This document shows, in pieces, positions 26,501 to 60,876 of a stretch of DNA of 64,000 nt (its first letter is position 1; each line of letters opens with the position of its first letter). The notes beneath the pieces are model-generated. The model was given only the letters and a program-made list of their open reading frames with translations. It made no database searches and had not been told where the DNA came from. The translations under genes were made by a program, and so were the position numbers. The stretch comes from Mytilus edulis (taxonomy: Eukaryota), in the NCBI RefSeq assembly GCF_963676685.1, contig NC_092351.1:67766001-67830000 (forward strand), read 5' to 3'.

Positions 26501-29500
26501 AGCCTTAGGTTTGGATCAAAATACTCTAACCCAGGTAATATAGCATTTAAAGAGGATTTTCCTGATGTACTTTTTATATGACCGCAAATAAAATTTTTGC
26601 GTCGTATAATGGTATCATGTCGTCTGCGTCATCCAAAGACACATTTAGTTTCCAGACAATAAATTTAGTTTTAGTGAATGAATCTATAAATTTTTACCAG
26701 GAGGTTCAATGCCACTAAAGGAAGATTGAGATTGATTTTGGATGTTATGGTCCCAATAGTTTAGTAATTAGGGGCCTTAAATGAAAATCTTTGCAGTTTT
26801 CAAACAATAACTTGTGTTTAAGTGTATGGATCAGAATACCTCTTTTATATTTCCCGCTCAAAACATTGCAAACATGAGTCATCTTAGTTTGTAGAATACC
26901 TGGATGAAAGTGTAAACATGGCGCTTCCATTTGTTAAAAACCGTGTCAAAATCAGAGGAAATTTACAGAATTTACGAGAATTTGAAATGAGGGAACATTT
27001 TTTTTGAAAGAATATGGAAGAATTGAAGCCAAACAAGTATACTTTTTATACGACCGCAAAAATAATTTGCGGTTATATATTAGTATGACGTTGGCGTCGC
27101 CGTCATTGGTTTTCGCACTATAACTTTAGTTTAAACTCCAAATTTTTGAAAAGTTTGAAGAAGAAATCTTTTATTGCACAATATTGCTCAATAGATTTGT
27201 AAGATATTTACATTTGTTGTGTGTCAGAAACTCATATTATATCAAAAATCTAAATTCAGAGCAGTATCAAGCTTGAATTTTGTGTCCATACTTCTTGCCC
27301 CAATTGTTCCGGGTTTTACATCTGCGGTCGACGGTCATATAAAGCTGTGCCCTGCGGAGCACCTTTTTTTTTTTTTTTTTTATGGTCCCACCGCAGCATA
27401 AGGCATAATTTTTTTTAATTGAATTGATTAATTTTAACAACTTTCTTTTTCCTTTTTGATATAAAAAAATTGCCAGATATTTAATTGTTTTTCCTGACAA
27501 GAGGACTTATAGGATTGTGCAACTAGAATTGATAAAATTGACAAACTATGAATTTGTACTGCTGCCATTATTGTATACCTAGTTACAAATTAAACAAAAT
27601 AAAAAGAAATAAGATACATATGGCCCTTTGTACTAAAGTAAAAACCAAATATTGTAGCGCCGCAAGCTAATGAGTACTCCTCTTTCAAATCTCACCACTT
27701 AAGGATGTACTTTGGTGAGGTTAGGTGAAAATTAATAAATTAAGAAGTTAAAATTGATACTTTAAGCTGATAGAGCATCAATTAAGGATAAAAATAAGCT
27801 AAAAATATTCATAGGTCATGGACCTCCTTTTCGAGATATTTGAGATTTAAAATATGGCGGGAAAAGGCTGACTTGGACTTTTACCTTACATTTGCATTGG
27901 TATTATTTGGTCTCAAAACAAAAGAAAGAAAATCAAGAATTTTCTAAAATTTGGTAAATGACCTTTCATGAGCTATTAAGTCTTACATGGAAAAATAAAT
28001 GGGTGTTATGGGGCAAAATATTTTACATTGTATTGTATGGAAAAACACTGAGGAATCCGAACATTTGACACAATTTCCAAAACCTCACCTAAGTACATCC
28101 TTAACCCTCAGTTTCAAAAGGAATTTATCCTGTATTAAAAGAATAAAGAATATGGAGTATCCATTTATGACACAAAAGCAGTACATGCGCAACAAAAACA
28201 GACAGTCTTCATCTTCATCACAGAGAAAAATATACTCCATATCTTCCAAATATAGTTTATGTGAAAATAGACAAATTTGAAAGCGCCATCCAAAAACACA
28301 ATGTAGGAGACCTGAAGTTATTTAAAAAAATTTCTTGATATTTCAGCAGTTGGGAACTTTAAATCAACAGCAACAGCTGCTTAAGGCTCAACAGATTGAT
28401 AACATCAAAAACAGATTTCCACAACCACAACAACCTATTCCTCAAGTATGAATTTTACATCAATTTTAATTATTTCACTCGGTTTTGTTACATCACTCTT
28501 CATAGATCTTTTACCTACTAGGAATACAAAATAACAAAGATAGGGTCTTCCAATACCAATTTTTCGAATGCAGCTGGATTCCAATATCATATGATAGTGG
28601 ATAAAGATTTATTCTTACTAGAATTTGAAAACAAATCATCATTTTGATGTCTGTCTTCTTCATTCCAAAATTATGCTATTTTCCTTAGAACATGGCAAAA
28701 TTTGACCAAGGTGAAAACTTAAAGCAACCATTGTGACTTCCTAAATCATTACCTTTGCTAACAAATTTGCTGGACAATATATAAGTACATTTTTCCTTTT
28801 AACTGATAATATAAGGGTAATTGTCATCGTCTCAGGTAAGACAATTTTCTATCAAAAAAAAAGATCCAATGATGAGGTAGACCTTGTAGTACAGGTTAGA
28901 CATAAATTACTCTCCTCTATTCATACTAATTTTATATGCCTGTAGTGGATGCATTATGGTATATTTTGTCCAACTGTGGTTATTTCAACACTTTGCGTAA
29001 ATATTGGTGAATATTGTCCTGAGTAGATTTTATATTGCACAAAAATTGAGGTCCCCCCCAAAAAAAATGTAGAGGGGTTTAGAAGGTACTTCATATTAAA
29101 ACTACAGGGATGATGATTATCAAAACTATTTTTCACACTTTTTCAATTAGAATTGTCTGGGTGGCAGGTGTTGAAACAAACTGCCCTCTCTCTTACATTT
29201 TTTTCCAGGAATAGCCTCATAACAAATCTTGAAAAACACTTAAAAACATTATACAAAGCCTCTGCATGTAACAAAAAGGGAAAATTAATCAATAATGTGT
29301 CATGGGATAGTTTACAAAAACATTAAAAAATATGTTTACATTGATCTTTTGATATAAGAATTGTTCTTTTCACGATAAATGAATGATAGACTTCTTTGGA
29401 CCTCTTGTTAATATTTTAAATAAGTAATTGATTTTATGTTTTATGGAGATGATTAAGGGTTTTGTATTCTGGTCATGTTAATATATTGTATTATATGCCT

Positions 29501-32500
29501 TAATGTTACAGGCTCAAACATGCCCACATTCCAATGCTGGCTCTTAATAAGTATTTATATTCTGTTGTTTTCAGCCACGACCACAACTTCCCCCATCTCC
29601 AGCATCAGTTAGCCAGCTGACACAGAGAAGTCCTGCTCCAGCATCCAGTATTTTGTCACAGTTCTCACCACAGCCACTTTTGTCACAAAACCCTACATCA
29701 GTATCATCACAGTTGTCATCGTCTCAGGTAAGACAATTTTCTATAAAAAAAAAAAAGGCCAATGATGAGGTAGACCTTGTAGTACAGGTTAGACATAAAT
29801 TACTTTCCTCGATTCATACTTATTTTATATGCCTGTAGGGGATGCATTATGGTATATTTTGTCCAACTGTGGTTATTTCAACACTTTGTATAATTACTCA
29901 AATTTCCTTTCAAACAAATCTCTTTAACCCTTTCACCGATTGCTGCCCAGACAGAAGCTACTCCGAGACGATGGCTTCCCTAGCTACTTTTACTCAAGTG
30001 GGAGATCTTCATAATAAATATCAATAAAAACCTGTTTGTAGGTATTTGTGTATTTATTTTATTCACTAACACCATGTTTACAGTTTTGTTTATGTTTTGA
30101 TAATTTTTTCTTCATAAAATATTCAAATTTTCCAATTTTCGGCATTATATAGGTGAAATTCTCAAAATTCTGCTCTTTCACCCCTAATCGTAATTTTTTA
30201 ACCCAAAACGGCAAAATTTTGAAAAAATTTATGAGGCTGTACAAATTCCTCACACTGAACGATGTCCATTCCAAGTGTTTTGTACAAAAAAACAACATTT
30301 TATGTCAAAAAAGTATACTAGTTTGGCTTCAATTCTTCCATATTCTTTCAAAAAATATGTTCCCTCATTTCAAATTCTCGTAAATTCCATAAATTTCCTC
30401 TGATTTTGACACGGTTTTCAACAAACGGAAGCGTCATGTTTACACTTTAATCCGGGTATTCATCAAAGAAAGATAACTCATGTTTGCACTGTTTTGAGCG
30501 GGAAATATAAAAGATGTATTCTGATCCCGGTAAAACGGGACTCATCGTCAGCTGTCTGAAGTGTAAATCCCGGTAAACCGGGACTCATCGGCGAAAGGGT
30601 TAATTTAAATAGTATTGAAGAAATGTATCTTTCTGTTTTGCCAATTTGTTGGTCCTTTTTCATAGTTTATTGGACTTGGCTATCATATAAGGGCAGTTAT
30701 TCAAATATCTCTTCTATTTTTCAATGGAATAGTTTTTAGAGTATGTCTGATAGCATGGAGGAGCCTTTATCAGCAACAAACTGGTTATAAATTTGAAGAT
30801 TGATAACTATTTTTATTATCTCTTTACAGTCATTAGAAAATTTACATAATGCATTACAAGCAGACAAGCTGATGTCCGCAGATATAAATACTAGTCTCAA
30901 TCAAAATGGTGGTAGTCAGCCCCAAACATTAGTAGATGTTCTGACAGCTCCATGTACAACTGGTTCTACACAGCCAACCAGTACAGCACCTGCTACGTCT
31001 ACAACAACAGTAACCACTAGTGCTAGTAACAGTCTCATTAACTCAGTAACACCAATTACTAACTCTATAGAGCAGGATGTTAAACCAGATATTAAACAAG
31101 AAATCAAGATGGAAATTAAAACAGAGCAGGACATCAAACAAGAACCTGGAATTCATTGTGGAAAAGAGATTTCACAGGTATTTGTATAGGCTCAAATAGT
31201 TTTTAACAACATAGGAGATGGTTATATAGAGATTAATTACAATTGAAGAATTGATGAAGTTGAGTATAACAACCAAAACAAGAGTAATAATTTTTTCATT
31301 GAATGATGCATTTAAAAAAAATATGCACCAAAATCAGGATTTACACATGCATTGAAATATGATTACTTACTTATCCTGCTTTACATTGTAATAAAAAAAA
31401 AATGGTACCCCATGAATAATATTTTTAAGAATAAAAATGTGAATAAACATAAAATTAGAAAGAACATATGAAAAAAAAACTGCAGAAAGCATTACTGATT
31501 TATTATTAAATAATGAGTTCTGGTATGTTAAGACCTTTACACAATGATGTAAATAACTTACTAATAGTTAAAGGCGTCAGTTTCCTACACTGTTGGCATC
31601 TCATTGATAGAAACATTACTCCTGGAAATTTTCAGTTTAAGCATAATTGATGTTATCCAAAAGTTGTAGGGAGATCACTGCTACATCATTTCATTTAAAC
31701 CAGAATTAAAGAAAAATTAGTATGTAGAAGGAAAGTGACTGATAAAATGTATTATTTTAATGTTACATCTAAGATACTTGAGAATGTATAAATCATAATT
31801 TTTTTTACTTTTTCAGTCCTCTCAAATAAAAACAGAAAATGATACAAGTGACATAAAACCTATGATATCTCCAAAGACTGAGCTTACAACCAATGATACT
31901 GAAAATAGTGAAACCAAACCAAGTCCAATGGAAACACCATCCATGTCACCAAGCATTCCTGTTTCCACACCATCATCAACTCCCAACAACGTAGTTGTAC
32001 CTGGCTCATCCAAACCTAGATGCAAAAAAAGTAGGTAGCTCCTCAATCAGGAGTGTTTACAAATATCTCTTTTATCTTGCAACTTCTTTTATATTGGCCA
32101 TCTGACAGTGTATGGTTTAACTGCCAAAATATTATATCATTTAAAGATATTAAATATCCTTAAAATACATATTTTGAGCAATGCCAAGCCATCACAAACT
32201 TAACCCTTCAAATTTTTAGTTTGTCAGTGAAATGTTTCCCGATGATTCAGGATGATTGAAAAAATAGTTCTTCAAGTTGGAGCGAATGCTTTCCTTGACA
32301 TGACCTCTGAACTATAATTTAAATTACAACCATCATAATATTGATTTCTACTTTTTCAGTATTTAAACCTGATGAATTAAGACAATCTTTGATGCCGGTG
32401 CTAGAGAAGTTATACAAGCAAGATCCAGAATCTATGCCATTCAGACAACCAGTTGACCCAGTCTTATTGGGAATACCAGTAAGTGTGCAGATAAGATATT

Positions 32501-35500
32501 TTGAAAATAAAGCAATAATAATTGTTAGTATGGTTTGGTAGGATTAATTTTCTTTTCACAGCAATATATATATAGCCCCTTTAAATTTTTATCCCCCTCC
32601 CTCCTTGTATCAAAGGGGGCATTAAGTTTTACCCTTGTCCATATTATTTTATTTAATATGCAAGTGGGAGCATCATCTGTATTTCTTATAGTCCAATATG
32701 TTTAAGACTTAATTCAATATAATAAAGGAAAAGCATATGCACTTGGACCCATAAGTGATTGGTGTATGAAGTTTGCTGTTTGTGTTCTTTTCATTAGTAC
32801 CATTTATTATCTTAAACAGGATTACTTTGACATAGTAAAGACTCCAATGGACCTGTCATTAATACGAAGAAAGTTAGATACAGGGCAATATGCTGATCCA
32901 TGGCAGTTCTGTGATGATGTTTGGATGATGATGGACAATGCATGGCTGTATAATAGGAAAACTTCAAGAGTTTACAAATTTGCTTTAAAGGTAAAGATAT
33001 AATTCACAAAGAGATCTGTCTGTCTGTCGGGACAGTAGATTCTTTGATTGAATAAAAGAAAGATTTTATATTTCATGTGCAGTTTGATCATGTTGATTTG
33101 TAGGCTGTAAGTTATTTTATATCTACCATGGACACACTTCCTGGTTGCTTATTATTTGAAAATTTACAACACTCATTGGTACAAGGAAAAGAGATATTCA
33201 AACATGTTCCTCCTCTACAATTACATAATATAAGCATTTTATTTAAGTCAAATGAGCATAGAAACCATATTTTTCAGTTGTGATTCTGTACATGTGACTT
33301 CGATCAATAGTATTGGAATCCTATGATCGTGCTTCATGGCTGATATGAAGCTGATTCTTTTTAAAGAAATTGTAATAAATATTTTAGATCTTTGATTAAT
33401 TTGAATTTATGCACATAGCAGTACATTATTTCAAAATTTTAAAGGTAAAATTAAACAAATGGATTGTTAACATGGGACTGAGTGAAAAATGGATACAGAA
33501 AAATGAGACTTGTCTAAGTTGAAAGGATACAGGTGGAATCACCCCTGACTACCCATTTTCTGATTCATGAGCACACTACTTTATTAACTTTATCTTTGTA
33601 GAAAAACATTGGTATTTCATATTACAGGTTATAGTATGAAACTTATTATTGTGATTCAAACCTTTCTTTCCTTTTATTTTAGCTTGCCGAAGTATTTGAG
33701 GGTGAAATTGATGCTGTAATGCAATCCTTAGGTTACTGTTGTGGAAGAAAGCATGTTTTCAGTCCACAAGTGCTATGCTGTTACGGCAAACAACTTTGTA
33801 CCATATCAAGAGATGCTGTTTACTATAGTTTTCAAAATAGGCAAGTGTGTTAGATTACTGAAGCATAATCAATAGTTTTAATACTTATTAAATGTAACCA
33901 AAAAAAAACAAATGAAAAAGAATAAACACGTAATTTTTTTTTTTACTGATGTATGAGAAGAAAAGCAGATATCTTCATGTATAAACATCTTTAATACCAT
34001 AAAGTCTTTACTATAACTACAGAGGGAATAGTCCTGTAGAATACCTTGACTTGATAGTAAAAATCTTCCAAAATAGAAACAAGTATTTTCGTGGAAGCTA
34101 TTGCCAATGAGTTGTTACAGTTCTATTAATTGAAATTATTAATTTCTGCTTTGTATACATGTAGTATATGCTCAAATAATTGTACAATGTGTTGACTATG
34201 GATTCATTTATTTTGGTGGATTAAGGAAAACTTACTTGGTTATGGATATTAAAATTTTTGGTTTTGCTGAAGACTGCATACAAGCCTATATGAAATTTGT
34301 CCTTTGTTGAACATTTAATTTTGTGGTTGACCTGTTCCCACAAAATCAACAAAATGAGTATCCCACAAATAATAATGAATCCACAGTATGTGTATGGCTA
34401 TTTCACTTGAATGAATGTTAGGATGGGGGAGGGAAAGAAAGGACTTCTTTAATCCAAATCAACATACAATGTACTTTCAGCAATCATTAATGGCGCACAA
34501 ATTTTGTCCAAACAAATTCTCCCTACCTACCCTATCGCATTCATTCAACAGAATAGCCATTAGTTATTTTCAATATTTCATGGTAGATTTTGTACATTAT
34601 GATATAACAGTGGATCAGTATTTAAATGTACTCCATTGATTTCAATATCATCATTTCTCATCACCATCATTGCTTGCTTGCACATTATTTTTGTGCCTGA
34701 TGCTGTTCAGTTATTAAATCACATTGAAAAGAAAGAAAAAAGCATATGAAAAATGTATCTAGAGTTGTTTCAGAATTAAACGCATGGAAGGCCCTGTTTA
34801 AAACCTCACTTCCTAAAATATAGAATCTTCATTTTTCTTGTCATTCTTACAAAATTCTAAAGGAAAATGTAACAACCCACAGTTGATAAATTTGAGTGAC
34901 TCCCATGTCCACAGTCAAATTGGGATCACATATGCAACTATCAATGAAATTAGACAAAAGTACACACTCCTGATATAAATTGCTTTCAGGGTATCTAGTT
35001 AATAATTTGTACATTTTATAAAGTCTCTGAAACCTGAGCAGCTGAAGGTTCTTTCTTATATTGCTTTATAAAGAATATGGAGAGGCTTCAGACAAGAATT
35101 TTTATTCTGTGGTTTCCCTCAAACTAAAACATTGTTTCTACATGTTAATTTTTGTTTTGTTTAGCAGATATTCTTCCAATTACTACCAACTGTCCTTTTT
35201 TTTATATTTAGTACTTTCTAGTCAACAATTTTCTAACTTTTTTTTTTATTATTTTAAGTTTTAACCAAATCAAGTTGGATATATTCACACATTTTGTTCA
35301 TGTTTTTTTAATTCTGATGAATTTTGCAAGGGAAAAAAATGTCTTTAATTAGTTGGGTGACAGTACATTGTTACTGATTAATGACACACCAATGTCTTAA
35401 ATATGAAGGATGATATTTAATAGGATTTATATACTGTTGAAATACAAGGCGACTAAAAAGTTACATTATCATTATTTCTCCCTAAAATTTATTAAAAGGG

Positions 35501-38500
35501 TGTGCTTATATGTAAAATCATACTGAAGAAAAATAGTATCATGTTGGAACATTTTCATTGAAAATATTTCTGTTCTGAAAAAACATGCTTTATTTTCTAC
35601 AAGTTAGCTTTTGTGACATCTTCCTGATGGTACTTAAAAATAAGATTGTTCATTTGGTTAATTTGTGGAATATCTGTTGATTGTACCAAAATATTTTTCC
35701 TTGTTGATATTAGTTTTAAATTGTTGTAGTAGTGTTATAGTTATCATTTGTGTATTTTTTTCTTTTTCCCCAATTATTTTCTGCTTGTGCTGTGATGCTG
35801 TTGTATATTGCATTTTCATCATCCTCATCATCACCTTCAAAAATAACAGAAAACGGACAAATGGGCTTTTTTCTGACAGATACATATACTGTGAAAAGTG
35901 CTTCAATGAAATCCAGGGAGAAGAAGTGGAACTTGCAGATGACCCCACACAACCTGCTACGTAAGTATAGAATTGTAATGATAAACATTAAAAGTAGTAT
36001 ACATTTTTTACCCATTCCCACAACCTGCACAGTGAAAGGGATATTGACTTAATAAAATACTCGTTTGGTTCATCACACTTCATAGTTAATGCAAATATTT
36101 GATATCCATATGATTGATATCTTTTCAAAGATTTCTAACTGATCTATGCACATATGAAAAGATGATTCTTCTAAAAAAAAAATGGGGGGGGGGGGGAGTG
36201 GAAAATGTGAGTTTTCGATCCTGAAAGTGGCTTTAAACACCAATAAATTGATCAGAATCTCAATTTGGAAGAGGGAAAATTCTTAAATGACTTTTATATT
36301 CATTTATCCCATTTATAATGTACCTTCCCTGGGTACGATGTTTGTTTTAAGACCCATGTCTTATGTCAAATTGTTTTTTTGTTAAATTTTTAATGACTTT
36401 ATAAATTATTTTACAACTATTGGTGAGATGAGGTACATGTATAAGAAATTTCAACACAAAATATAATACAAGATATATTTGCTTAAACAATATGTAAAAA
36501 AATCTTTTTCTTTGTCCTTTACTTGAGGACAATTATGATACAAAAACTCAACAAATATTTGCCATGGTATGAATTCCTACAATGATTGTTGCTTGTTTAT
36601 TATTTGGTGGCAATTTTCCTTCATATGCTGGGCAATGAACAAATAAATTCAATATTAAAGAAAATGTTGTGTGAACAATATTAAGATTTCACAAGTTATA
36701 TTTGTATATATGATATATATGCATAAATGAAAGAACTCTTAAATTTCCAATGTTATGATTTCAGGAGAATTAAGAAAAATCAGTTTGACAGAATGAAAAA
36801 TGACCAGTTGGACTATGAACCGTAAGTCTCAGAACTATTTTTTAATACCATTGCTTTATGCCTCTTTAGAAATGGTAAAAAATCCCTGTTTTTTGTTTCT
36901 GTTCTCAAACTTTAGCTTAACTCAACCAAATATTATGAAACATATACACAATGATTATTACCATTAAAAACAGATCATGTTTAAATTTTTAAATGTTCTA
37001 GAGTTATTCTTCTTTACATATAGAAAAATTACTGAATTTTTTGTGATGCCCTATTTATGGGCATTATGTTTTCTGGTCTGTGCGTCTGTCTGTTTATTCA
37101 TTCATTCGTCTCTTTGTCCCGCTTCAGGTTAAAGTTTTTGTTTGAGGTAGTTTTTGATGAAGTTGAAGTCCAATCAACTTGAAACTTAGTAAACATGTTC
37201 CCTATGATATGATCTTTCTAATTAAAATGACAAATTAGAGATCTTATCCCATTTTCACGGTCCACTGAACATAGAAAGTGATGGTGTGGATGAAGCATCC
37301 ATGTACTTGTTTTCATTATCTTAGGTTTGCCTGAACTAAATGATATGAAACTTTAACATAATAATTATAACCAAAAAACTAAGGGCTGTTCCAGAAAATA
37401 CTATGTCCCCCCCAGGGACGGCACTTTTTTTTACCCCCACCACCCACAGAAATAAAATTTAATTAGAACAGCTCTCCCTTTGCATTTTGGTATTTCAAAT
37501 ACAACCACCCACATTATATTTAAAAAAATTGCCTTCCCTGGGGGGGACATAGTATTTTCTGGAACAGCCCTAAGTTCAAGTTCATGTTTTGGTAGTGTCA
37601 CTTTTACTGTTCTTCAGTTATGTCCCTTTATAACTTAATATTTTGGAAGTCCCTTCCTACCCTCCCATATCCATTTTAATGGAGTAAGCTTAAATGCAAA
37701 TATAAAACCTCACCCCTTTACCTGATCAACATAGATGCATGCAGATTTTTGAAATTGCAATAATTAATCTCACATTTTAGTCCATTCTTCAAAATTCACA
37801 ATAATAAATGCAAGCAATTATTTCTGAATTTACAGAAGATATGTATTTCAGAAGTTAGAACAACTAGAATTCAATTTTGTTTCAAACATTTGTAGGAAAG
37901 TTAATTTATAGTTAACTAGTGTACATGAAAGAAATATAATACAGCTGTGTTTCATTATTATTTTCTTTGTTATTACAGATTTGTTGAGTGTGAAGAATGT
38001 GGAAGAAAGCTGCATCAAATTTGTGTGCTTCATTTTGAACAGATATGGCCTAATGGGTACGATATTGCTTCATTATGTTGTTTGATAGACTGTAGAATGA
38101 AAGTAACAAGAAGTCACTTACTGACTAAACACAAATTAATGATTGAAGCATAAATATTATGACATAACCTTTCTTCATATTATTGACTTAATATTGCAAA
38201 TGCCAGAGTATAAACATATCTTGGCTGTATGTTTGGTCCAACTTTTTGGAGCCAGAGCAGCCAGCCCCTGGAAGACATTAAGTTTCCAGATGATAATTTG
38301 AGTATAAGTGTAAGGATCTCTATGAAATAGTACCTAAAAAGGAAGGTTGGGATTGATATTTGGGGGTATGACCCACAATGCTTAGTTATAAGGACTTTTC
38401 TTATACTTTGTATAGATTGCTTATTTTTGACCAATTTCAATGGGGGTATAGTTCAAAGTTTTGAATTCTTGGTGTTCTTTAATAAACTGAATCTAACCAT

Positions 38501-41500
38501 GTATATGGATATTAAGTAAATGTCCAATTGAAAAGTTCTTAAACCGCATTCATGCAATTTAAGAAATTATGCTGTGTCAAATATTTAATCACTATCCTAA
38601 TTCAGATCTGTATCGGCAATTTGCAGAACATTTTATTCCTCTTGTTTTAACTTATCTTTTATTCAGTTAGGGAACAACGGTAATTCAGATGTAACTGTTT
38701 TAATATGCCAAAAATACTTTATAAATATAGGAAATGTCTTGTATTTTGCAGATTTACCTGTGATAATTGTTATAAAGCCAGAGGATCAAAAAGAAAAGAA
38801 AACCGGTATACTGCCAGAAGTAAGTAACATTTTTACTTCTTTTAAGTCTTCTACAAAGTCCAATGTGATTATAGCTTGTCTGTCCTATCCATCTGTCAGT
38901 CCCACAAATCATTTTTCCACACTTTTTTTTTCCTAAGATATCGATTTGATATTTGGTATTTAGCTTTATCATCACACATTACAGATCAAGTTCGAATTTT
39001 GTTTCTGTCTGATGATTTAGTGCAGAGTTATAGTTCTTGGACTTTGAAAATTTATACAAGAAATCAGTTTTCCACTTTTTTTATGCCCATACATAGCGTA
39101 GGGGCATTACATCAACATCTCTAGAGTAAAATATAAAGTTAAACAGTGACTGTTAACATTCATAAACAGTAGACATGTTTGACATGTTGACTTTGTGTGT
39201 TGCTGATGTCCTATATTATGCCGCTCTGGTGAGAAATAATTCCAACAAATTTCTTTAGTTTCTCTTTTATTATACGACCGCAAAAATTGAAAATTTTTTG
39301 GTCGTATATTGGTATCATTTTTTATGTTGTTAGGCTATGATTGGGCAATTATTAAAAGCCATTGAAAAATAAATTTAATTATCAGGGGCTGTTCCATAAA
39401 AAATACATGGGACCCAGGGAAGGCAACTTAAATTTGCCACTATGGGTGGATGTGAACTGGTTAAAAATTATGCAGGACTCTAAATCGATTCTATGGGTGT
39501 TCATTCTGTTTTCAAAGTGCCTTCCCTGGGTACCAGGTATATTTTAATGGACCAGCCCTCAACATATTTCATAACTCTATGGATTAGTGTTCAGTGTATT
39601 TATGATTTGATGCCAACTCTTCACCAGAAATTTTCATATTGGCTGATACAGAAATATTACTGAGATGTTTAAATTCATTTTGTTTTGTATTGCTTTGCTT
39701 TTGCAGATATACATATGTCAGGACTACTACCTACAAAATTAGGAACATACTTAGAAAATAGAGTGAATAATTTTTTACGGAAAAAGGATGCAGGTGCTGG
39801 AGAAGTTTTTATCAAAGTTATATCTTGTACAGACAAAGTTGTGGAGGTTAAACCTGGGATGAAAGCAAGGTAAATATACTCATTATCATCTCTATTTCTA
39901 TTACTGTAAATAGGGTTATTTTGGTGGATTTTTTGCCTTCATTGAAAGTGCTAAAATAAACTATACATTTAAAAAAAAAAAGGACACAACATGAATTTTT
40001 CTGTACACATGTCATAAATATGCCAGGCTATTGCTGATTAAACGCTGTTATTGGTAATTAGAATATCAAACTTCTTGTAATCCTTTACCTTCAACTAATT
40101 AACATGTACTACCAGAGGCATAAGGATTAAAATTTAGAATAACTGACTTCTTTCACCTCAAAACTATATAACAAAACAAAAAATATGTCATTACCTTGCA
40201 ATGTTTCTATATCTTGAAATTTTCACTAACTTAGTGTATGAAAGATGGCTGCCATTCTTGCTTTGGATTTTAATGTTGTATGTTTTTATCAATTGATTGA
40301 TTCAGGGTCCTAGTATCTTTTAGTGATGAACATAATTATTGACAAATTAAGCTTTGTTTATTTTAAACAAGAAATTGGCTGTGTAGTGAAGGGTTTGAGC
40401 ACTTGGAAAATGATTTAAGGATGTTTGCTTGTCATTTTTTGGATTTTTTGTCAGATTTTCGAAATCCTCTTGTTTTATTGATTTGAATGCCTTAAAACAT
40501 TTTGCCCATGGACCCCCATTTTTCTTTTTATAAATCTGTTACATGTATAATTATAAGCCATTTGTAAAAGTCTTATAAAATCTTATTTATTTTTTGATAG
40601 TTTTTGAGAACTTGTCAATGATAAAGCTATGAAAAATCAAGAGAGAACATTTTCCCGCCAAAATTCAAATGGCTAATATTTCTAAAACAAGCACATTGAC
40701 CCCTATATTTTTGGGCCAATTTTTATTCCTCAATTAATACCCTATCAATATATACTAGTTTTTTGAAAAGTTATTTATTTTGAAACTGAGCAGCAAACTT
40801 CCTTTAACAGCAATTAGACAGGTTATTAAAAATAATTGAAAAACAGTTAATATAATATCTAAAAAGTAACGTAAGTATGAGCCATTATCTTTTCTTTTGT
40901 TTGACAATTGATTGTTTTTATCTTTGTTCTTTTGTAGATTTGTTGATAATGGTGAGATGGTACCAGATTTTCCATACAGAGCAAAAGCAATGTTTGCCTT
41001 TGAGGAAATAGATGGTGTTGATGTCTGTTTTTTTGGAATGCATGTTCAGGAGTATGATTCCAATTGTTATGCACCAAATAATAGGTTAGTACTTCCCTGT
41101 TGATCAAAGGACATATAGGCATGGCATATGAAATTGCCATAGCTTAAGAAAATATCTGCTCAGCCTACCTGTTTGAGACTCTGATCCATTCTTTGCATCA
41201 AGCTTTGCAAATTTTAAGACAGCCCTTCAATGGTGTAAAAGAAAATTGATTCAACAAGTTATTGGTGATATGCTGTTTTAAGGACTGCTTTCAGATATAT
41301 ACATTTGTACTAAACCCAGCCCATGAAATTTTAACTGCCAATCTTTGGCCCATTTGAGAATTATCTTATAACACTACACCAGGCCACCAAGAATATTGGA
41401 TAAGCTACCACTGGAAAATTGCAATCTCAACTCCTGGTTTAATCCAGATCAATAGATCACATTACATTTAATATATTCAGGTTGCACTTTACATAGAATG

Positions 41501-44055
41501 TCATTTCACCATGTGTATATATTAATGTACTTTTAAGTCGTTGCATAGGTGTTGTGCATTATTTACTAAAGACTTTTCATTCTTGTAGGAGATGTTACAT
41601 ATGTTGTGCATTATTTACTAAAGACTTTTTATTCTTGTAGGAGATGTTACATATCATATTTAGACAGTGTACATTTTTTCCAACCAAGACAACTCAGGAC
41701 AGCAGTTTATCATGAAATCCTTATTGGTTATTTAGAATATGCCAAACAAATGGGATTCACATGGGCACATATTTGGGCTTGTCCACCAAGTGAAGGAGAT
41801 GATTACATATTTCATTGTCATCCACCAGAACAAAAAATTCCAAAACCCAAACGTCTACAAGAATGGTATAAAAAGATGTTAGATAAAGCTATTATTGAAA
41901 GATGTGTGATTGATTATAAGGTTTGTATTTTTGAACACTGTTGATTTATTATTATTTGTTAGATACCAATTTTCATAGTTTTCTTTGGCACAGGTGATCC
42001 ATGAATTAAATTGTTAATTGATTTACACATTTTCTACAGGCTTTGTATACAGAGATCCATTAAGGGCTATTCCTTGTTTTGAAAATTTGCTGTATTTTTA
42101 TGAATATGTGCAATTGTGCTTTAAAAAATTATGGTTTTTAATACTAGATGGATAGTTTCTCATTAGGGGACCTATAACATTCAACAATGAAAGTCAAATC
42201 CTCTTTTAGAATGTTTAGTTTATGTGTACAGAAAAGAAAAAATCACCATCTTTTTATTCTCCTACCGACAAGGTTGTTCCTTGTTTCTGAATCCTAATTG
42301 TGATTGTGTTTATAAAATATACTTGTATTATTCATAATAAAATATTGTTTACTTAAAAAAGTCGAGTACTTTAGGTTTGCACTCTGTCCGTCTGTCCATC
42401 TGTCAGTCGACAAATCTGTTTTCCACCCTTTTTTTCTTCATTCTTGATAATCTTGAAGATATTAATTTGATATTTGGTTTGTTGTTTTATCATGACAAGT
42501 AAAAGATCAAGTTTAAATTTTGTTCCAGTCTGATGATTAAGTGCAGAATTATGATCCTTTGACTTCAAAAATTCAATAAAATAATCAGTTTTCTGGACTT
42601 TTTTTCATCATGCATGAAGATGTTAATTTGAAAATTGGTATGATCGAATTTTGAATTTTATTCCAGTCTGATGATTTTGTGCAGAGTTGGACTTACAAAA
42701 TTCACTTATATATCAGTTTTCATTATATATATATAGTGAACAACATGACAAGTTATATTTATTCCAATGCAATACAATGAGTGTTTAACCAGTAGGGGAC
42801 TATGTATCACCATGCAATGCTTGTTATCAGTGCTGTTAAAAGGCTGAAAATATCCCTAAAAATTCAAAATTAACAGATTTTTAACAATTAAATCAAGATG
42901 CACAAAGTTTTAAGTATTGGTCAGAATTTAGGGTTCTTTTGTACTTTAACAATATCACAATAACAATAAAATGACCTAAATTTTGGACAAGGTAAGGGAC
43001 GACATCAAAAGTTCAATGTAGGATAAAAAACTTAATTCACATAGTTTTTCCACTGACCCCCCACCCCCCTCTTAACTTAATTTGGGAAAAATTGATTTAC
43101 CAATAGGGATATATGTAAAAATTGATTTTGGATATACAAAACTTGCAGAATTTTAACCCCCAAACCCCCCAACCCCAAAACTATTTGATTTAAGTTTTTT
43201 ATCCTACATCGATCTTTTGATGTCGTCCCTAAATGGCATGAAGCCAAATTTATCGACTTCTGTTGTATGAATGGGATAAACTGACTTTTCAATTCTCAAG
43301 GCTAAATAAGTATTTTATAGGCTAAACACAAACTTACCTGTCAAGGTAGAATTGTAATCTGAGTGATAGTCACCATAAAGGTTTTTTTTTGTGTTTGGGT
43401 ATGAACAATGACAAAGTTTGTGATAAGGTCAGTTTGAGGGGACCTATCCATGGTAAGTCAATGATATTTGGTAAAGAGGTGTATACGCCCTGCCGTATCA
43501 CATTTTCATGAGGATTATTGGTCACTAGACTTTCAGTCATGATACATTGACATGAATGTTTTGCATACTTTATGTGTTAAGTATTCTTAATTTCAACATT
43601 TGCATTTTACTTTACAAATTTCATAGAGGAGGGACACATCTATTTTTCAATTGCTTGATACCTTTGTGCTTATTGGAACATTTTATTAGTTGTACATATT
43701 ACATATTTTACATTTAATTTCAGGATATTTTAAAAGATGCAATCGAAAACAATATAAAATGTGCCACACAAATACCCTATTTTGAGGGAGATTTCTGGCC
43801 CAATGTTTTAGAAGAAAGCATCAAAGAATTGGACCAGGAAGAGGAAGAAAAGAAGAAACGTGAAGAAGCTGAAGCTGCAGCAGCAGAACAAGCAAGTGTT
43901 GAGGAGGTTGTTGAAGGAGAAGCTGACAATCCTGTAAGTGTTACTAGACATAGATATTCCTTATTTATTCTTTGCTTCTCTGTATGTCTGTCAGTCTTTT
44001 GTTAGTATCTTCTAAGGGTAACCTCTTGTAAAAGTTTTTATACCCCATGCAGCGA

Positions 44056-44091
<36 letters not shown>

Positions 44092-47000
44092 CGTCAGTCC
44101 TGTTTCTTGTCATCGCAACTCCTCTCAAACCACACAACAGAATTTCACGAAACCTTTTCAGATAATAAGGACATACTATGTAGTTGTGCATATCGACGGG
44201 AAATTGCGATTCAATTTTTTTTCTGGGAGTAACGCCCCTTTGAACTTATTTACTTTAATGTACTACTGCAACAGTTTGTCATCGCAACTCCTCTCAAACC
44301 ACACAACAGAATTTCACGAAACCTTTTCAGATAATAAGGACATACTATGTAGTTGTGCATATCGACGGGAAATTATGATTCAATTTTTTTTCTAGGAGTT
44401 ACGCCCCTTTGAACTTATTTACTTTAATGTACTACTTCAACAGTTTGTCATCGCAACTCCTCTCAAACCACACAACAGAATTTCACGAAACTTTTTCAGA
44501 TAATAAGGACATACTATGTAGATGTGCATATCGACAGGAAATCACGATTCAATTTTTTTTCTAGGAGTTACACCTCTTTGAACTTATTTGCTTTAAGGTA
44601 CTACTTCAACAGTTTGTCATCGCAACTCCTCTGAAACTACATAACAGAATTTCATGAAACCTTTTCAGATAATAAGAACATACTATGTAGATGTGCATAT
44701 CGACAGGAAATCACGATTCAATTTTTTTTCTAGGAGTTACACCTCTTTGAACTTATTTGCTTTAAGGTACTACTTCAACAGTTTGTCATCTCAACTCCTC
44801 TGAAACCACACAACAGAATTTCATGAAACTTTGTAGATAATAAGGTCATACTATGTAAATGTGTATATTGACAGGAAATTATTATTCAGTATTTTTTCTT
44901 ATACAATTTTTTTTTCTTATACTTATTTAATTTCTCCAATGACAATGTGGGGACGTGGGGTATGTGAGCATGCTCACTAAGGTTCTTTTTTTTCCTCAAT
45001 AAATAGTTAATGAAATAAAGCCTTCTCAAACTAGTGTTTCTGTGAGTTTATGTTTAGTTAACACAATCAAATTGAATTCCATCAAATCTATCTATATAAA
45101 ATACAGTTTCCAAAGGGATTGATATTCTAGTATCAGAATTCATTTGTATGAAAGAAATTTAGATGATCCTTCGTTGCAACAGAATAACACTTCTGTCGAA
45201 TATATGTATTAGCAAATAATTTGCCATCATTAAATTGTCAAAAACAGGTTTTATACAGTTGTACGCATTGAGGATGCTGATGAAATCGAAATTTATGAAA
45301 GTGTATGCAATATACATGTATTTAGATGAAAATGCTAGAATGACTTCTTGTTTGTATTTAAAATTTGTCTTACCTTGTTTCATTAGATTTGAGTGATACT
45401 GACGAGGCAATGCAGATTTAGCTTATGTTCAAACTTACAAGTTTTGTATATTGGATGAAATAAACAACGTCATTAGGTTAATTAAAAACATTGGTCATTT
45501 AAGAGGATGGATTTGTGTACAGACACAGTAGTTGATGTTTTGCTATGAATCTAGGTATCTGTAGACTACATTATTATTGCAGTTATATTTATTTATTTAC
45601 ATATTTATTTTCGTAGAATGGTGCTGGAAAGAAGAAAGGAAAGGGTGGTAGAAAACAAAAGCAAAGCAAAAATAAAAACAATCAGCGGAAAAATACCAAA
45701 AAGACCAATATGCCTCATGGTGGAAATGATCTCACACAAAAAATATTCAGTACTATGGAAAAACACAAAGAGGTAGGAAATAACTTGTAACTTTAAGTCT
45801 GTAATTCCTATGGTTACACTGCACTATATAGTGTAACCATGGGATTTATAGACCTATCAGGAAAAAGGTATCATGTCAATGTAAAGAAATAAAACAAATG
45901 GAAACGTTCTGAGTGTTTAGAATTAGTTTATTTTAGGAAAGTTCAGGTGGTTAGAAGACATATTGTGATACATTGGATGATAGGATTAGAACATTCTTCA
46001 CCTTAAAAACGCTATTTATACTATTTTATAGATGAAAACAAATAAAAACAACAAAATTCTTTCTTTTGTAAGATTTTTTTCCCGTGGTTGCTATTTCACA
46101 ATATAAAAAGATTGTCTTGTAATTAACATCGGTGTTGTATAGTTTCTAAAAGAATCCTCAATGTTTTCTATCATTGTAAGATATCATAAGCATTAAATTA
46201 TCATTCACGTAACATATAAACATTTATAATGTACAGTGTTTTTTTAACAGAATAAAAGATGTTTACTATTTGATATATGTTGAATATGTTAAATGGATGA
46301 TTTGCTCTATTGACAGGTATTCTTTGTGATTCGTTTACACAGTCAACAGGTAGCTTCAACACTTCCTCATATTCATGATCCAGATCCTTATATTTCTTGT
46401 GATTTAATGGATGGAAGAGATGCATTTCTCACAATGGCAAGAGACAAACATCAGGAATTTTCATCTTTACGTCGTGCAAAATATTCAACAATGGCTTTAT
46501 TGTATGAGCTTCATAATCAAGGAAAAGACAATTTTGTTTACACATGTAATACTTGTAAAGCACATGTGGAAACTAGATGGCATTGTACTGTTTGTGAAGT
46601 AAGTAATGTGACTTTACATTTGGTGTCTGTGTGGGTTTTTTTTCATCTAAACTAATGATTTTACATGAATTTTTTGTTCTATTATTTCAATGATCCCTGT
46701 TAATTTACATTTAATGACAATGTTAATGAGCACTAAAAGAATCATTAAAGTTGTTGGTATTTTGAACCAACTATGAAATATTTTTAAATACTATCTGAGA
46801 AGTAATAACCTGTATTGTAATTAAGAACCAGTTGTTTTGTATCTACAAGGTGCCAAATTTTCAGTAAAACTATTAAAAACTTTTGTGATATGAAGTGAAA
46901 ATATTTAAACTTGTCACACATGCTAAGCAAGAAGTGGAAGATACCTAAGGGACAATCAAAAACAAGATAATGAAAAAAAGACTAATAAAACCATTGCAAT

Positions 47001-48529
47001 AAATGAAAAAATGATGAAAGGTAAAAGGATCAAGTCTACAAAAGACTTGTCAAAATTATGGCTCTGTCATTCTAGGTTAAATTTATAAACATTTAAAAAA
47101 AAAAAAAAAATATCGCTGATATTCTGAAGATTTTATTGTTTATTTAATCAAAGTCCTTTCCTATTTTATTTCAAAAACAAGTTTTATATTGAGTCAAGAT
47201 TAACACTATACTAGAATTGCGCAACAAAATCAGAAACAAACATCCACCTCAAAAATACACTTCTCTTGAGTTCGTTCTGCGTTGAATTCTTAAATTCATG
47301 GTTTGCTGACACCCATGAAGACTACAAAATTTGGTATATTAAGATTAGAAATGAATCCACAGTATATAATTTGGAATATCTGACTGTAGTCAAGGTATCT
47401 TTTGCTTCAACTAAATATTTTTTGTATTTTTACAGGATTTTGATCTGTGTTGTGTTTGTTATGAAAAAGAAGGACATTGTCATAAAATGGACAAACTTGG
47501 TTTGGATCTTGATGACGGTTCATCCCCCAATGATAAACAGGATGATCCTCAACAATCACGCCGTCAATCTATTCAACGTTGTATTCAATCATTAGTGCAT
47601 GCATGTCAGTGCAGGGACGCAAATTGCAGACTCCCAAGTTGTCAGAAGATGAAACGTGTTGTATCTCATACAAAGTGTTGTAGAAAAAAGGCTAACGGAG
47701 TTTGTCCAATTTGCAAACAACTTATAGCATTGTGTCTGTATCATGCAAAACATTGCACAGAAAATAAGTGTCAAGTGCCATTCTGTTTACAGATTAAACA
47801 TAAGTTAAGGCAGCAACAGTTACAGCATAGACTTCAACAAGCGCAAATGTTGCGGAGGCGAATGGCCTCAATGCAACGGACTATTACACCTAGTGCTCAA
47901 AACACAACACAACAATCTCCTGCCGCAACAGGAATCCAACAACAACCAGTTTCATCAAATTTCAATTCTGGTAAACCTGTGGCTGGACCTCCAGCAGCTG
48001 CTTTACAAGCTGCAATGGCTGCTCAAGAGGAGGCTTCTCGTCAAGCTAGTCTTCAGTCTGGTGCAGCAAGTGTGGCTACTATGCCCCCACCACAAGTGCA
48101 AGCACCAGCTCAAAAAGTACCAGTGAACACTGCAATGAATAACTCTAAAGTGGTCTGGCCACCAAATTCAACCTACCAAACAATGCCTCAAAATCCCATG
48201 AATCCACCACAAATGAGACCGCCAATGCAGCCAAATCCTATGAATTCTGGAATACAAATGCAGCAACAAACACAGCAACCGGTTGCTGGAGTACGACCAG
48301 GAATGCCAAATGCTGGTCCTCAAAGACCGCAGCAGCATGCTTTAGAACAATTATTAAGAACTTTAAAATCACCCAACTCGCCGCAGCAGCAGCAACAAGT
48401 GTTACAAATTCTTAAGTCAAACCCCCATCTTATGGCAGCTTTTATCAAACAGAGAACTCAGCAGCAACAAGGTCAACCTGGTCAACACAATATGAACCAG
48501 TCAAATCCAAACAATATAGCACAGTCACA

Positions 48530-48561
<32 letters not shown>

Positions 48562-49148
48562 AGCTGTGGCAACTTCAACAACAGAGATTAAGAATGCAAC
48601 AACAACAACAACAAAATCAACAGCATCCGGGTATGCCAATGAATCAACAATTTCAGCAACAACAACAGTTTCAACAGCAACGACCTAGAATGCCTTACAA
48701 TCCTCAATATACAGATAGCAACATTCAACAATTTCAACCGCAAATGCAGAATGCACAAATGATGCAACAGCATCAATTAAGACAACATATGGCTGGAGGA
48801 AATAATCCTCAGCTTTCATCTCAACAAAATGTGGCATCACCCAACTTCATGCAATCAGTGCGATCACCTAATTCATTACCACAGACTGTGCGATCACCAC
48901 AACCTAACCAATTATCTCGGCAGCAACTTAACCCATCACCTCGCCAACCTCAAATGTCACCACATGTCAGTCAATCACATCCAAATATGATGGGTACAGA
49001 TCCAAATCAATTACATTCTGATCCTAATTTATTATTAGGATCTTTGCAAGGCCAAGGGCCAGACCCTGGTCTTTTGCTACCCAATGACAATGAAGTGCAA
49101 CCTTTGACCCCACAAGACCAGTTGACTCGATTTGTTGATACATTGTAG
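14420..49148 (+). CDS. CREBBP: CREB-binding protein / p300 histone acetyltransferase orthologue (CBP, nejire-like), 28 coding exons, ~2183 aa
   Basis: Spliced translation gives hallmark motifs in the expected order: [17 protein letters not shown]1 ([18 protein letters not shown]), KIX ([19 protein letters not shown]...[20 protein letters not shown]), bromodomain, RING/PHD, HAT ([34 protein letters not shown]), ZZ, TAZ2, NCBD ([35 protein letters not shown]) and C-terminal [14 protein letters not shown]. Exon lengths sum to 6552 nt with matching phases. Confidence 0.98.
15301..15374 (+). repeat. Perfect 37-bp tandem duplication
   Basis: gaaagattttatatgaactgaacaaataatagcaaaa x2. Confidence 0.9.
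15691..16369. mobile_element. Non-autonomous DNA transposon in CBP intron 1, TIR CAGGGATCTCCATGG, 5-bp TSD acatt
   Basis: 15-bp perfect TIR with TSD on both sides. Confidence 0.88.
17622..18295 (+). CDS. CREBBP: CBP exon 2 (N-terminal nuclear-receptor interaction region)
   Basis: ttttcag acceptor, gtaagt donor; [31 protein letters not shown] (LxxLL). Confidence 0.93.
18706..18855 (+). CDS. CREBBP: CBP exon 3 (low complexity)
   Basis: tttttag / gtgagt; 150 nt open, phase 0-0; [17 protein letters not shown]... Confidence 0.85.
19674..19953 (+). CDS. CREBBP: CBP exon 4 (TAZ1 N-half)
   Basis: ttttcag-type acceptor / gtttgt; [25 protein letters not shown]...CNAGKSCQ. Confidence 0.96.
19969..21231 (+). 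mobile_element. HINE-like element in CBP intron 4, with a ~488-bp internal duplication
   Basis: tttttagctcacctggcccaaagggccaagtgagc, (CGT)n, 3' ccaaggtgagc plus ggctc..gagcc hairpin; starts ~16 bp after the exon 4 donor; older relatives near 2170-2480, 2820-3330 and 49915-53570. Confidence 0.85.
21535..21672 (+). CDS. CREBBP: CBP exon 5 (TAZ1 C-half)
   Basis: tttttag / gtaagt; [33 protein letters not shown]. Confidence 0.96.
21826..22053 (+). CDS. CREBBP: CBP exon 6
   Basis: tgttgtag / gtaaat; conserved [12 protein letters not shown]. Confidence 0.93.
22549..22812. mobile_element. Fold-back MITE in CBP intron 6 (long TIRs tacagcaaaatgcattgag...)
   Basis: ~50-bp imperfect TIR; interior largely self-complementary. 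Confidence 0.82.
23253..23445 (+). CDS. CREBBP: CBP exon 7 (KIX start)
   Basis: gttttag / gtaagt; [21 protein letters not shown]. Confidence 0.94.
24597..24714 (+). CDS. CREBBP: CBP exon 8 (KIX)
   Basis: tgacag / gtatgt; [39 protein letters not shown]. Confidence 0.97.
25601..25709 (+). CDS. CREBBP: CBP exon 9 (KIX end)
   Basis: tttacag / gttagt; [25 protein letters not shown]. Confidence 0.96.
26107..26380. mobile_element. Second copy of the same fold-back MITE in CBP intron 9
   Basis: cagcagattgcattgagtgtgtag ... ctacacactcaatgcaatctgctg. Confidence 0.82.
26446..26534 (+). CDS. CREBBP: CBP exon 10 (disordered linker)
   Basis: tttatag / gtaata; 89 nt restores phase 1 to 0; [30 protein letters not shown]. 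Confidence 0.82.
27703..28100. mobile_element. TTAA-flanked MITE, TIR GGATGTACTT.GGTGAGGTT (Kolobok- or Crypton-like)
   Basis: 20-bp TIR with one mismatch, TTAA on both sides; distant relative in opposite orientation at ~40370-40805. Confidence 0.8.
28347..28445 (+). CDS. CREBBP: CBP exon 11 (Q/P-rich linker)
   Basis: tttcagcag (NAGNAG) / gtatga; 99 nt open; [33 protein letters not shown]. Confidence 0.8.
28821..28995 (+). repeat. Dispersed ~175-bp duplicate of the exon 12 3' end, donor and downstream intron (29713-29888)
   Basis: ttgtcatcgtctcag|gtaagacaattttct...tatttcaacactttg at both positions, few mismatches. Confidence 0.93.
29575..29727 (+). CDS. CREBBP: CBP exon 12 (P/S/Q-rich linker)
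   Basis: ttttcag / gtaaga; 153 nt open; [20 protein letters not shown]... Confidence 0.85.
29928..30599. mobile_element. piggyBac-type MITE, TIR CCCTTTC(A/G)CCGAT, TTAA TSD
   Basis: ttaa|ccctttcaccgat ... atcggcgaaaggg|ttaa. Confidence 0.9.
30830..31177 (+). CDS. CREBBP: CBP exon 13 (T-rich, with a cluster of psi-K-x-E SUMO-type motifs)
   Basis: tttacag / gtattt; ...[23 protein letters not shown]. Confidence 0.88.
31817..32030 (+). CDS. CREBBP: CBP exon 14
   Basis: ttttcag / gtaggt; open 214 nt ending KPRCKK, joining to IFKP. Confidence 0.88.
32360..32478 (+). CDS. CREBBP: CBP exon 15 (bromodomain)
   Basis: [40 protein letters not shown]; ttttcag / gtaagt. Confidence 0.97.
32820..32990 (+). 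CDS. CREBBP: CBP exon 16 (bromodomain)
   Basis: [12 protein letters not shown]...[18 protein letters not shown]; aaacag / gtaaag. Confidence 0.97.
33683..33840 (+). CDS. CREBBP: CBP exon 17 (bromodomain end / RING start), followed by a GC donor
   Basis: [53 protein letters not shown]; donor AG|gcaagt. Confidence 0.95.
35880..35960 (+). CDS. CREBBP: CBP exon 18 (RING); alternative in-frame acceptor at 35850
   Basis: [27 protein letters not shown]; ctgacag / gtaagt. Confidence 0.94.
36765..36821 (+). CDS. CREBBP: CBP exon 19 (57 nt)
   Basis: [19 protein letters not shown]; tttcag / gtaagt. Confidence 0.95.
37383..37570. mobile_element. PIF/Harbinger (Tourist-like) MITE, ~40-bp TIR, TAA TSD
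   Basis: taa|gggctgttccagaaaatactatgtcccc ... ggggacatagtattttctggaacagccc|taa. Confidence 0.9.
37979..38056 (+). CDS. CREBBP: CBP exon 20 (PHD)
   Basis: [26 protein letters not shown]; ttacag / gtacga. Confidence 0.96.
38752..38819 (+). CDS. CREBBP: CBP exon 21 (PHD end)
   Basis: [22 protein letters not shown]; ttgcag / gtaagt. Confidence 0.95.
39385..39558. mobile_element. Related Harbinger-type MITE, TSD tca
   Basis: gggctgttcca...cccagggaaggca / tgccttccctggg...tggaccagccc. Confidence 0.75.
39722..39869 (+). CDS. CREBBP: CBP exon 22 (HAT start); alternative in-frame acceptor at 39707
   Basis: [50 protein letters not shown]; donor gtaaat. Confidence 0.93.
40938..41084 (+). CDS. CREBBP: CBP exon 23 (HAT)
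   Basis: [39 protein letters not shown]; ttgtag / gttagt. Confidence 0.97.
41550..41653 (+). repeat. 52-bp tandem duplication spanning the exon 24 splice acceptor
   Basis: tgttgtgcattatttactaaagactttt(c/t)attcttgtaggagatgttacata x2, one mismatch. Confidence 0.95.
41641..41920 (+). CDS. CREBBP: CBP exon 24 (HAT catalytic core)
   Basis: [16 protein letters not shown]...[39 protein letters not shown]...IDYK; catalytic D, W and Y positions intact. Confidence 0.97.
42996..43229. mobile_element. Harbinger-type MITE, ~45-bp TIR GGGACGACATCAAAAG, TAA TSD
   Basis: Long TIR; taa on both flanks. Confidence 0.9.
43724..43933 (+). CDS. CREBBP: CBP exon 25 (HAT / start of autoinhibitory loop)
   Basis: DILKDAIEN...[25 protein letters not shown]; tttcag / gtaagt. 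Confidence 0.95.
44035..44990 (+). mobile_element. HINE-like element in CBP intron 25 with ~4.6 x 169-bp tandem array
   Basis: tttttataccccatg...(CCGT)n; units start at 44107, 44276, 44445, 44614, 44783; 3' gtggggtat plus gtgagcatgctcac hairpin. Confidence 0.88.
45617..45772 (+). CDS. CREBBP: CBP exon 26 (Lys-rich autoinhibitory loop)
   Basis: [20 protein letters not shown]...[16 protein letters not shown]; tcgtag / gtagga. Confidence 0.95.
46317..46598 (+). CDS. CREBBP: CBP exon 27 (HAT end, ZZ start)
   Basis: VFFVIRLH...[31 protein letters not shown]...[22 protein letters not shown]. Confidence 0.97.
47436..49148 (+). CDS. CREBBP: CBP exon 28 (ZZ end, TAZ2, NCBD, polyQ, stop TAG)
   Basis: tttacag acceptor; [25 protein letters not shown]2 [24 protein letters not shown]. 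Confidence 0.97.
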
Positions 49149-59807: not shown

Positions 59808-60876
59808 GTGTACATATATTCATCTGAAAGAAAAGAAAAATGTCATATAACTTGACATGCACAAGATGAACTATACGTTTGTTTTTTATAGTCCGTGTTG
59901 TATTTGTAATATTTCATTAATTGCAATCAAGACTAGAAATGCTTGCGTTAAAACTTTCCGTGCATATAATGAATTCTAGCTAAAGTACACCAAACGCAAA
60001 TACAGGTATAGAAGATGACAACAGAACCATATTATAAATTAACTCCTATATTTTAGATCATTAAAAATGTATGACAAAGATTTTCTTTCTCTTTTATAAT
60101 TGCGTCTTGTAAGTATTATTACGATCGACACAAACATATTATTAGGTGTTTTATTAGGTGTTTTAATATTATACCGTTTACAATATTAGAGTTTGACGTT
60201 GCCAAGCACACAAAATCAAAAACCAAGTTTTACAGGAAAACATATCGCTAGTATATTTTTTTTAAATTCATTTGGTAAATTATAACGATACGTATATTGT
60301 ATTTTTTTTATTGGCATGCACGAACATATTTTTAATTTTTTTTATTGGCATGCACGAACATATTTTTAATAACCTTGATGAAAGGACATCCATGCTAAGT
60401 TATATAAGTTATGGGTCCAGTAGAGATTATGCTTCACCCGAGATTATAAACATCCTCGTGATCATTGCTTGAACACAGTGATTATAACTTCAATGTGCGT
60501 GTTTAGATCTTTATGTATTTATCAAGATTATACGAGTTTTGAACATTTAAAAGATGGAGTGCTTTCTTCTTTTCCAGTAATAAGAAACTGCTATCAATTT
60601 TTTAAAATGTCATAATGACATTACTTTCACATAGCTGTCTAATTCATGTTCACCAAATTGACTCAACAAATTCTCATTATCGACTTATCATATATTAAAA
60701 CGAAAATCCAAATAAAAAAGTCTAAAATAAACATTAATCAATATACTTCCTGAAATAATGTCCTTCTATAGTAAAATTGCTCTATTTTTGCATAGTTTTT
60801 AAAAGAAATATATAGCGTTAACTACACTATGCGAAAATAGTATGCCTTGCTGTTGTAACAGACTACATTGAGCATA

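Follow-up and report, generated by a model that had tools for sequence, protein, structure and literature searches.

The window analysed here, a stretch of 64,000 nucleotides, contains a CBP/p300 gene in which two nearly identical 3' splice sites stand in front of the exon that encodes the core of the HAT domain. Use of the upstream site (AG1) in place of the downstream site (AG2) would introduce a premature stop. The locus raises the question of whether the second acceptor is real and, if it is, whether it lowers the output of CBP, regulates it, or is simply tolerated.

Anatomy of the duplicated acceptor and its effect on the reading frame

Comparison by tblastn revealed collinear matches of three bivalve CBPs to successive exons between 17645 and 47948. 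The domain order TAZ1-KIX-bromo-RING/PHD-HAT-ZZ-TAZ2, together with the HAT core motifs, placed the gene in the CBP/p300 (KAT3) family. The exon behind the duplicated acceptor matched p300/CBP PDB chains (E 8e-53), its homologues carry PF08214, and its nearest named homologues were from bivalves (95%). A single genome match was obtained for the DNA (1/1 candidate) and a single one for the exon protein (1/4 candidates scored), and no second CBP locus was present in 200 kb of flanks. When splicing was modelled at AG2, 14 exons from 32360 to 49148 gave an intact frame of 1226 aa with a single terminal stop, and 896 of the 1213 residues aligned to oyster CBP were identical (74%). A GC donor was located at 33841-33842 after the exon 33683-33840, and the gene model is in frame with GC. 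The features around the duplicated acceptor were as follows.

17645..49148, + strand: CBP/p300 gene, span of the oyster CBP matches through the stop
40938..41084, + strand: upstream CBP HAT exon, 147 nt, with a GT donor at 41085
41550..41601, + strand: copy 1, with the branch-point-like TTACTAA at 41563-41569, a pyrimidine tract whose base -11 is C, AG1 at 41587-41588 and exon-like bases 41589-41601
41602..41653, + strand: copy 2, with TTACTAA at 41615-41621, a pyrimidine tract whose base -11 is T, AG2 at 41639-41640 and the initial 13 bases of the true exon
41589..41640, + strand: predicted extension of 52 nt retained if AG1 is chosen, with a frameshift and a premature TAG at 41638-41640
41641..41920, + strand: HAT core exon, 280 nt, with 95% identity to other bivalve CBPs and a p300/CBP structure match

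The two tandem copies of 52 nt were 98% identical by both TRF and a repeat finder, and the TRF score of 203 placed the duplication, as a repeat, far above chance. The duplicated unit consisted of 39 intronic and 13 exonic bases. The surroundings of AG1 and AG2 were identical from -39 to +13 except for one base, C41578 versus T41630, each located at -11 of its own acceptor. The duplication lengthened an existing intron by 52 nt, and no new intron was formed. The anatomy and coordinates given in the original prediction could thus be reproduced by TRF, the repeat finder and a check of the sequence.

The splice 41084>41641 keeps the frame, while the splice 41084>41589 shifts it and adds a tail of 17 residues, also present in the ORF 41554-41640, which ends at the TAG noted above. 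In the 1226-aa model, this stop falls after residue 363, ahead of HIWACPP (390), PYFEGD (457), ZZ and TAZ2, and removes 876 of the 1226 modelled residues from the C-terminus. At the true acceptor, TAG and GAG form a pair (GAG at 41641-41643); use of the AG at +3 would drop one residue and keep the frame. No rescue of the AG1 product could be found among the routes considered: the +3 AG of copy 1 is also out of frame, skipping of the 280-nt exon is out of frame, and neither of the GT donors at 41085 and 41089 brings the product back into frame. The AG1 stop is followed by four junctions, the nearest of them 280 nt away. According to the 50-55-nt rule, a premature stop farther than that upstream of a junction leads to NMD, and NMD is therefore predicted for the AG1 message. 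Translation and the 14-exon model thus agree with the earlier claims that the upstream AG shifts the frame to a stop before the catalytic core and that this stop occupies an NMD-type position.

A Cys is encoded at 41645-41647 (41593-41595 in copy 1), where 220 of 221 motif-bearing homologues have the Val of the RRV motif; Cys occurred otherwise only in Mya arenaria, and 9 of 230 proteins, which were without the motif, were left out of this comparison.

The frequency of such events was assessed from near-perfect two-copy duplications of 25-100 bp. Six were present in the window (two of them within larger arrays), and five, including the tail of a longer array, were flagged in the 200 kb of flanks. 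The resulting rate was approximately one short duplication per 30 kb, and for a gene with 22 acceptors, the chance of a duplication at one of them was 3% (flanks only) or 6% (window). At this rate, a duplication that crosses an acceptor is unremarkable, and no special process is needed to account for it. Further perfect two-copy duplications were located at 93-188 (48 bp), 15301-15375 (37 bp) and 60301-60370 (34 bp). A very high-copy repeat ends at 41937-42015, 16 nt beyond the donor of the HAT core exon, with a summed depth in the thousands and many loose ends. Open frames on the - strand at 8223-7652 resemble the terminal part of a retroelement reverse transcriptase.

Presence in independent sequencing runs

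The original prediction allowed for an assembly artefact, and a check of raw genomic reads and a survey of other haplotypes and species had been proposed. A search of sequencing runs listed 24 runs, of which 14, from 7 studies, contained 0.93-1.00 of the words of this DNA; some of the matching runs were labelled mollusc metagenome. Four of those 14 DNA runs (X1, X5, X6, and X10) were examined as read-derived contigs. Both copies were crossed gap-free in all four, which came from four studies and represented three organism labels and three haplotypes; the runs had been ranked by their content of this DNA, and 4/4 is not a population frequency. Within the duplication, no 52-nt gap, joint or variant letter occurred among the differences listed for the four runs. 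Record 1 of X1, a run that is possibly the source of the window, covered 40850-41972, and record 18 of X5 covered 41025-41758, each with no difference among those listed. Among the differences listed, record 9 of X10, over the whole stretch, differed by five letters and had 8 nt inserted behind 41513, and record 26 of X6 (41384-41974) carried two letters and a different 8-nt insertion.

41513..41514, no strand: polymorphic 8-nt indel located 36 nt before the duplication, inserted in two different versions (X6 and X10)

The word share of 0.93 in X6 and X10 is attributable to this indel, not to loss of a copy. The contigs of X5, X6, and X10 extend beyond both copies by 31 or more letters on each side, and the C/T difference between the copies was the same on the three haplotypes and under the three organism labels. 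Contigs can drop a second allele, and presence in a contig does not imply homozygosity. The ten further DNA runs with shares of 0.93-1.00, outside the count of four, probably carry the duplication too, given that the probability of an allele with one copy losing no more than 2 of 30 words is 0.09. The genomic ORF 41606-41941 could be recovered exactly on six contigs; it starts inside copy 2 and alone is no proof of copy 1.

A near-identical pair with a single mismatch is the typical look of a false tandem copy made by merging two haplotypes or overlapping reads; however, the contigs of X5, X6, and X10, whose three studies carry no mark as the source, span both copies independently, and the longest exact repeats (28 and 24 nt) are shorter than the 31-letter words, so that the graph resolves the copies, and an artefact, to which we give almost no chance, is refuted unless one and the same artefact is common to all three runs. 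The reads and the survey of haplotypes and organism labels thus both returned the duplication, and the artefact feared at the outset was not found. Nor did the description as a very recent allele hold if it is taken to mean a private mutation, as the duplication, with the same C/T difference, was shared by the three haplotypes and labels. The age that can be read from one mismatch in 52 is loose, with a range of 0.05-10%.

A second CBP-like copy was present in X5 (records 17, 19, and 22; 40923-41054, 41619-41758, and 41779-41931) at about half the depth and with 10-14% divergence. It fits the exons and 10-20 nt of intron only, and 15 of its 28 changed codons were non-synonymous, affecting the conserved KIPKPK stretch. 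It looks like a decaying paralogue missing from the genome assembly or like another organism in the sample, and it may be without the duplication, as its fit begins at 41619.

Competition between the two acceptors

The strength of the two sites was compared using an acceptor matrix built from the 16 other acceptors of the CBP gene, the training sites of which scored 6.9-18.3 bits in-sample. AG2 reached 7.1 bits and AG1 6.2 bits, and the gap of 0.9 bits is small for a 16-site in-gene matrix. At -11, the other acceptors of the gene carry T in 11 of 16 cases and C in 1 of 16; the direction of the single C/T difference favours AG2. A third AG in the same intron scored higher than both.

41479..41480, + strand: unrelated decoy AG, out of frame, 8.7 bits, above AG1 and AG2

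The decoy indicates that local score alone does not get a site used. Folding of the pre-mRNA made AG1 less accessible in four of six settings and more accessible in two, with no stable preference. Six RNA runs each had a word share of 0.47, that is, 14 of 30 words, where 12.8 would be expected with AG2 only and 17.8 with AG1 included. The likelihood ratio of approximately 3 for AG2 only (1.7 by a cruder estimate) was not counted as evidence, the carrier genotype of these runs not being given. In the protein searches and cluster look-ups, no same-species spliced protein, of either the AG1 or the AG2 form, could be found across the junction.

Based on these results, the duplication is best read as real, inherited and likely tolerated, with splicing mainly at AG2 and any leak through AG1 cleared by NMD; we place the probability of this reading at about 0.68. 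Its central step, the dominance of AG2, is likely, as predicted from sequence and analogy. The duplication would have arisen in a single local event of slippage or repair, a type that is frequent in this genome. Copy 1 has 13 exonic bases followed by 39 intronic U-rich bases, among them a second branch point and tract, and would therefore be without the exon context kept by copy 2. Reed and Maniatis (1986) reportedly observed that a short exonic remnant favours the distal 3' site. The flanking introns are long (504-556 nt and 1803 nt), so recognition would likely proceed across the exon and the advantage of an upstream site would be reduced. Copy 1 also has the slightly worse pyrimidine tract. 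AG2 would win and NMD would destroy the AG1 leak, so that a little CBP message would be lost constitutively and no switch would result. Tolerance is most strongly suggested, by an argument from selection, by the persistence of the duplication on several backgrounds and under several species labels in the only CBP gene found. An allele that halved an essential single-copy gene would probably have been lost from such a range of backgrounds and labels. If most transcripts use AG2, the duplication is an ordinary tolerated variant.

A greater cost to the gene is the second most probable reading, although on balance unlikely. Here, AG1 or skipping would take 10-50% of the transcripts, NMD would remove them, and the duplication would act as a cis-acting hypomorph that is buffered or tolerated. 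Such an allele would fit the one-base difference between AG1 and AG2, their scores within 1 bit and the branch point that each site has of its own. The presence of the duplication on three haplotypes and under three labels, in what is the sole CBP gene identified, speaks against such a loss, the dosage sensitivity of CBP being known from humans and flies, not from molluscs. Published cases of competing 3' sites support both directions. In PMC9225289, human competing 3' sites at least 20 nt apart showed an overall preference for the upstream site, a general trend that favours leakage. The same paper describes the upstream preference of equal-strength sites as significantly weaker when both introns exceed 250 nt, without stating a reversal, and both introns at the CBP duplication are above this limit. 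Among early globin acceptor duplications (PMC1557585), one study saw the proximal copy used, and a second found the opposite. Two boundary duplications disturbed splicing and are consistent with leakage. In BRCA1, where the exonic part is long (1617 bases), PMC11839443 places the duplicated sequence in the mRNA. In USH2A, the 29-bp duplication c.3812-3_3837dup led, according to PMC11311777, to 60.9% skipping and 1.8% upstream use, the upstream junction being covered by 20 of 1113 reads, a low share that speaks for the tolerated reading.

Regulation through the duplication is much less credible. A poison switch, in which tissue, stage or stress would shift the balance of AG1 and AG2 to tune CBP and selection would keep the duplication, is very improbable. 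The position of the stop would make a sound NMD trigger, and the duplication is common to several organism labels. However, the intron-side translations of other bivalve-like exon copies shared nothing with it (at the protein level, among the 13 further cluster members listed and the cluster representative), and short duplications are common in the window and its flanks. Among the papers listed for Mytilus CBP splicing and for CREBBP/EP300 poison events, none reported an event of this kind in CBP/p300. We also consider it very improbable that the duplication, shared across several bivalve lineages, adjusts the output of the single CBP gene through NMD by a sizeable, condition-dependent diversion of transcripts and is kept or spread by selection. 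If a sizeable AG1 share were true, an essential chromatin enzyme of a bivalve would have a natural allele of low expression that is widespread, and the locus would be a young case of AS-NMD regulation born from a short duplication.

A dominant-negative product is hardly to be expected. The AG1 message would have to escape NMD and yield a stable HAT-dead protein that keeps TAZ1, KIX and the bromodomain. The stop does remove the catalytic motifs, ZZ and TAZ2; however, its position predicts NMD by the 50-55-nt rule, and no protein with the AG1 end appeared in the protein searches, a weak point given that these returned no same-species spliced protein at all.

Comparison with known systems

Poison exons and regulated AS-NMD are known in SR and hnRNP genes. 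As with AG1, the alternative choice would place a stop well ahead of the last junction, and the distance of 280 nt to the next junction exceeds the 50-55 nt that define such events. Poison exons are conserved cassettes, whereas the CBP case is a predicted alternative acceptor from a young duplication. The segment occurs under three organism labels that are closely similar, and the intron-side translations of other species are unrelated (protein level only). The label of a poison exon is unwarranted, since the position of the stop is the only defining property found, and the poison isoform given as a fact in the title of the original prediction is a predicted one. The locus is also not a NAGNAG acceptor, as AG1 and AG2 are 52 nt apart with a separate branch point and tract; each copy contains its own TAG-GAG pair, which leaves the AG1 frame unrescued. 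Nor is it a case of intron gain, as no in-frame product with a new intron results. Intron gain by tandem genomic duplication, as described in PMC4974935 and PMC2809761, resembles the CBP case in its short duplication at splice signals and its buffering by NMD, but forms a new intron where the CBP duplication only lengthens one.

The CBP duplication belongs to an already known class, that of an acceptor duplicated across the intron-exon boundary, of which it is another instance. Among the patient alleles, USH2A c.3812-3_3837dup and the BRCA1 partial exon 10 duplication likewise have two acceptor copies, the first of which leads to a premature stop. USH2A differs in that only 3 intronic bases are copied, with no second branch point or tract, and that skipping predominates (PMC11311777). 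The BRCA1 allele copies its 1617 exonic bases (PMC11839443), whereas CBP copies 13 together with the full branch point and tract. Both are patient alleles, while the CBP duplication is common to several lineages. The globin constructs of Lang and Spritz 1983, Kuhne 1983, and Reed and Maniatis 1986, as cited in PMC1557585 and PMC9225289, are like the CBP locus in having two complete acceptors and one donor. They are constructs with short introns, whereas the CBP duplication is natural, has long introns and occurs in an invertebrate. If AG2 is dominant, the duplication would provide a natural test, in an invertebrate with long introns, of near-identical complete acceptors 52 nt apart.
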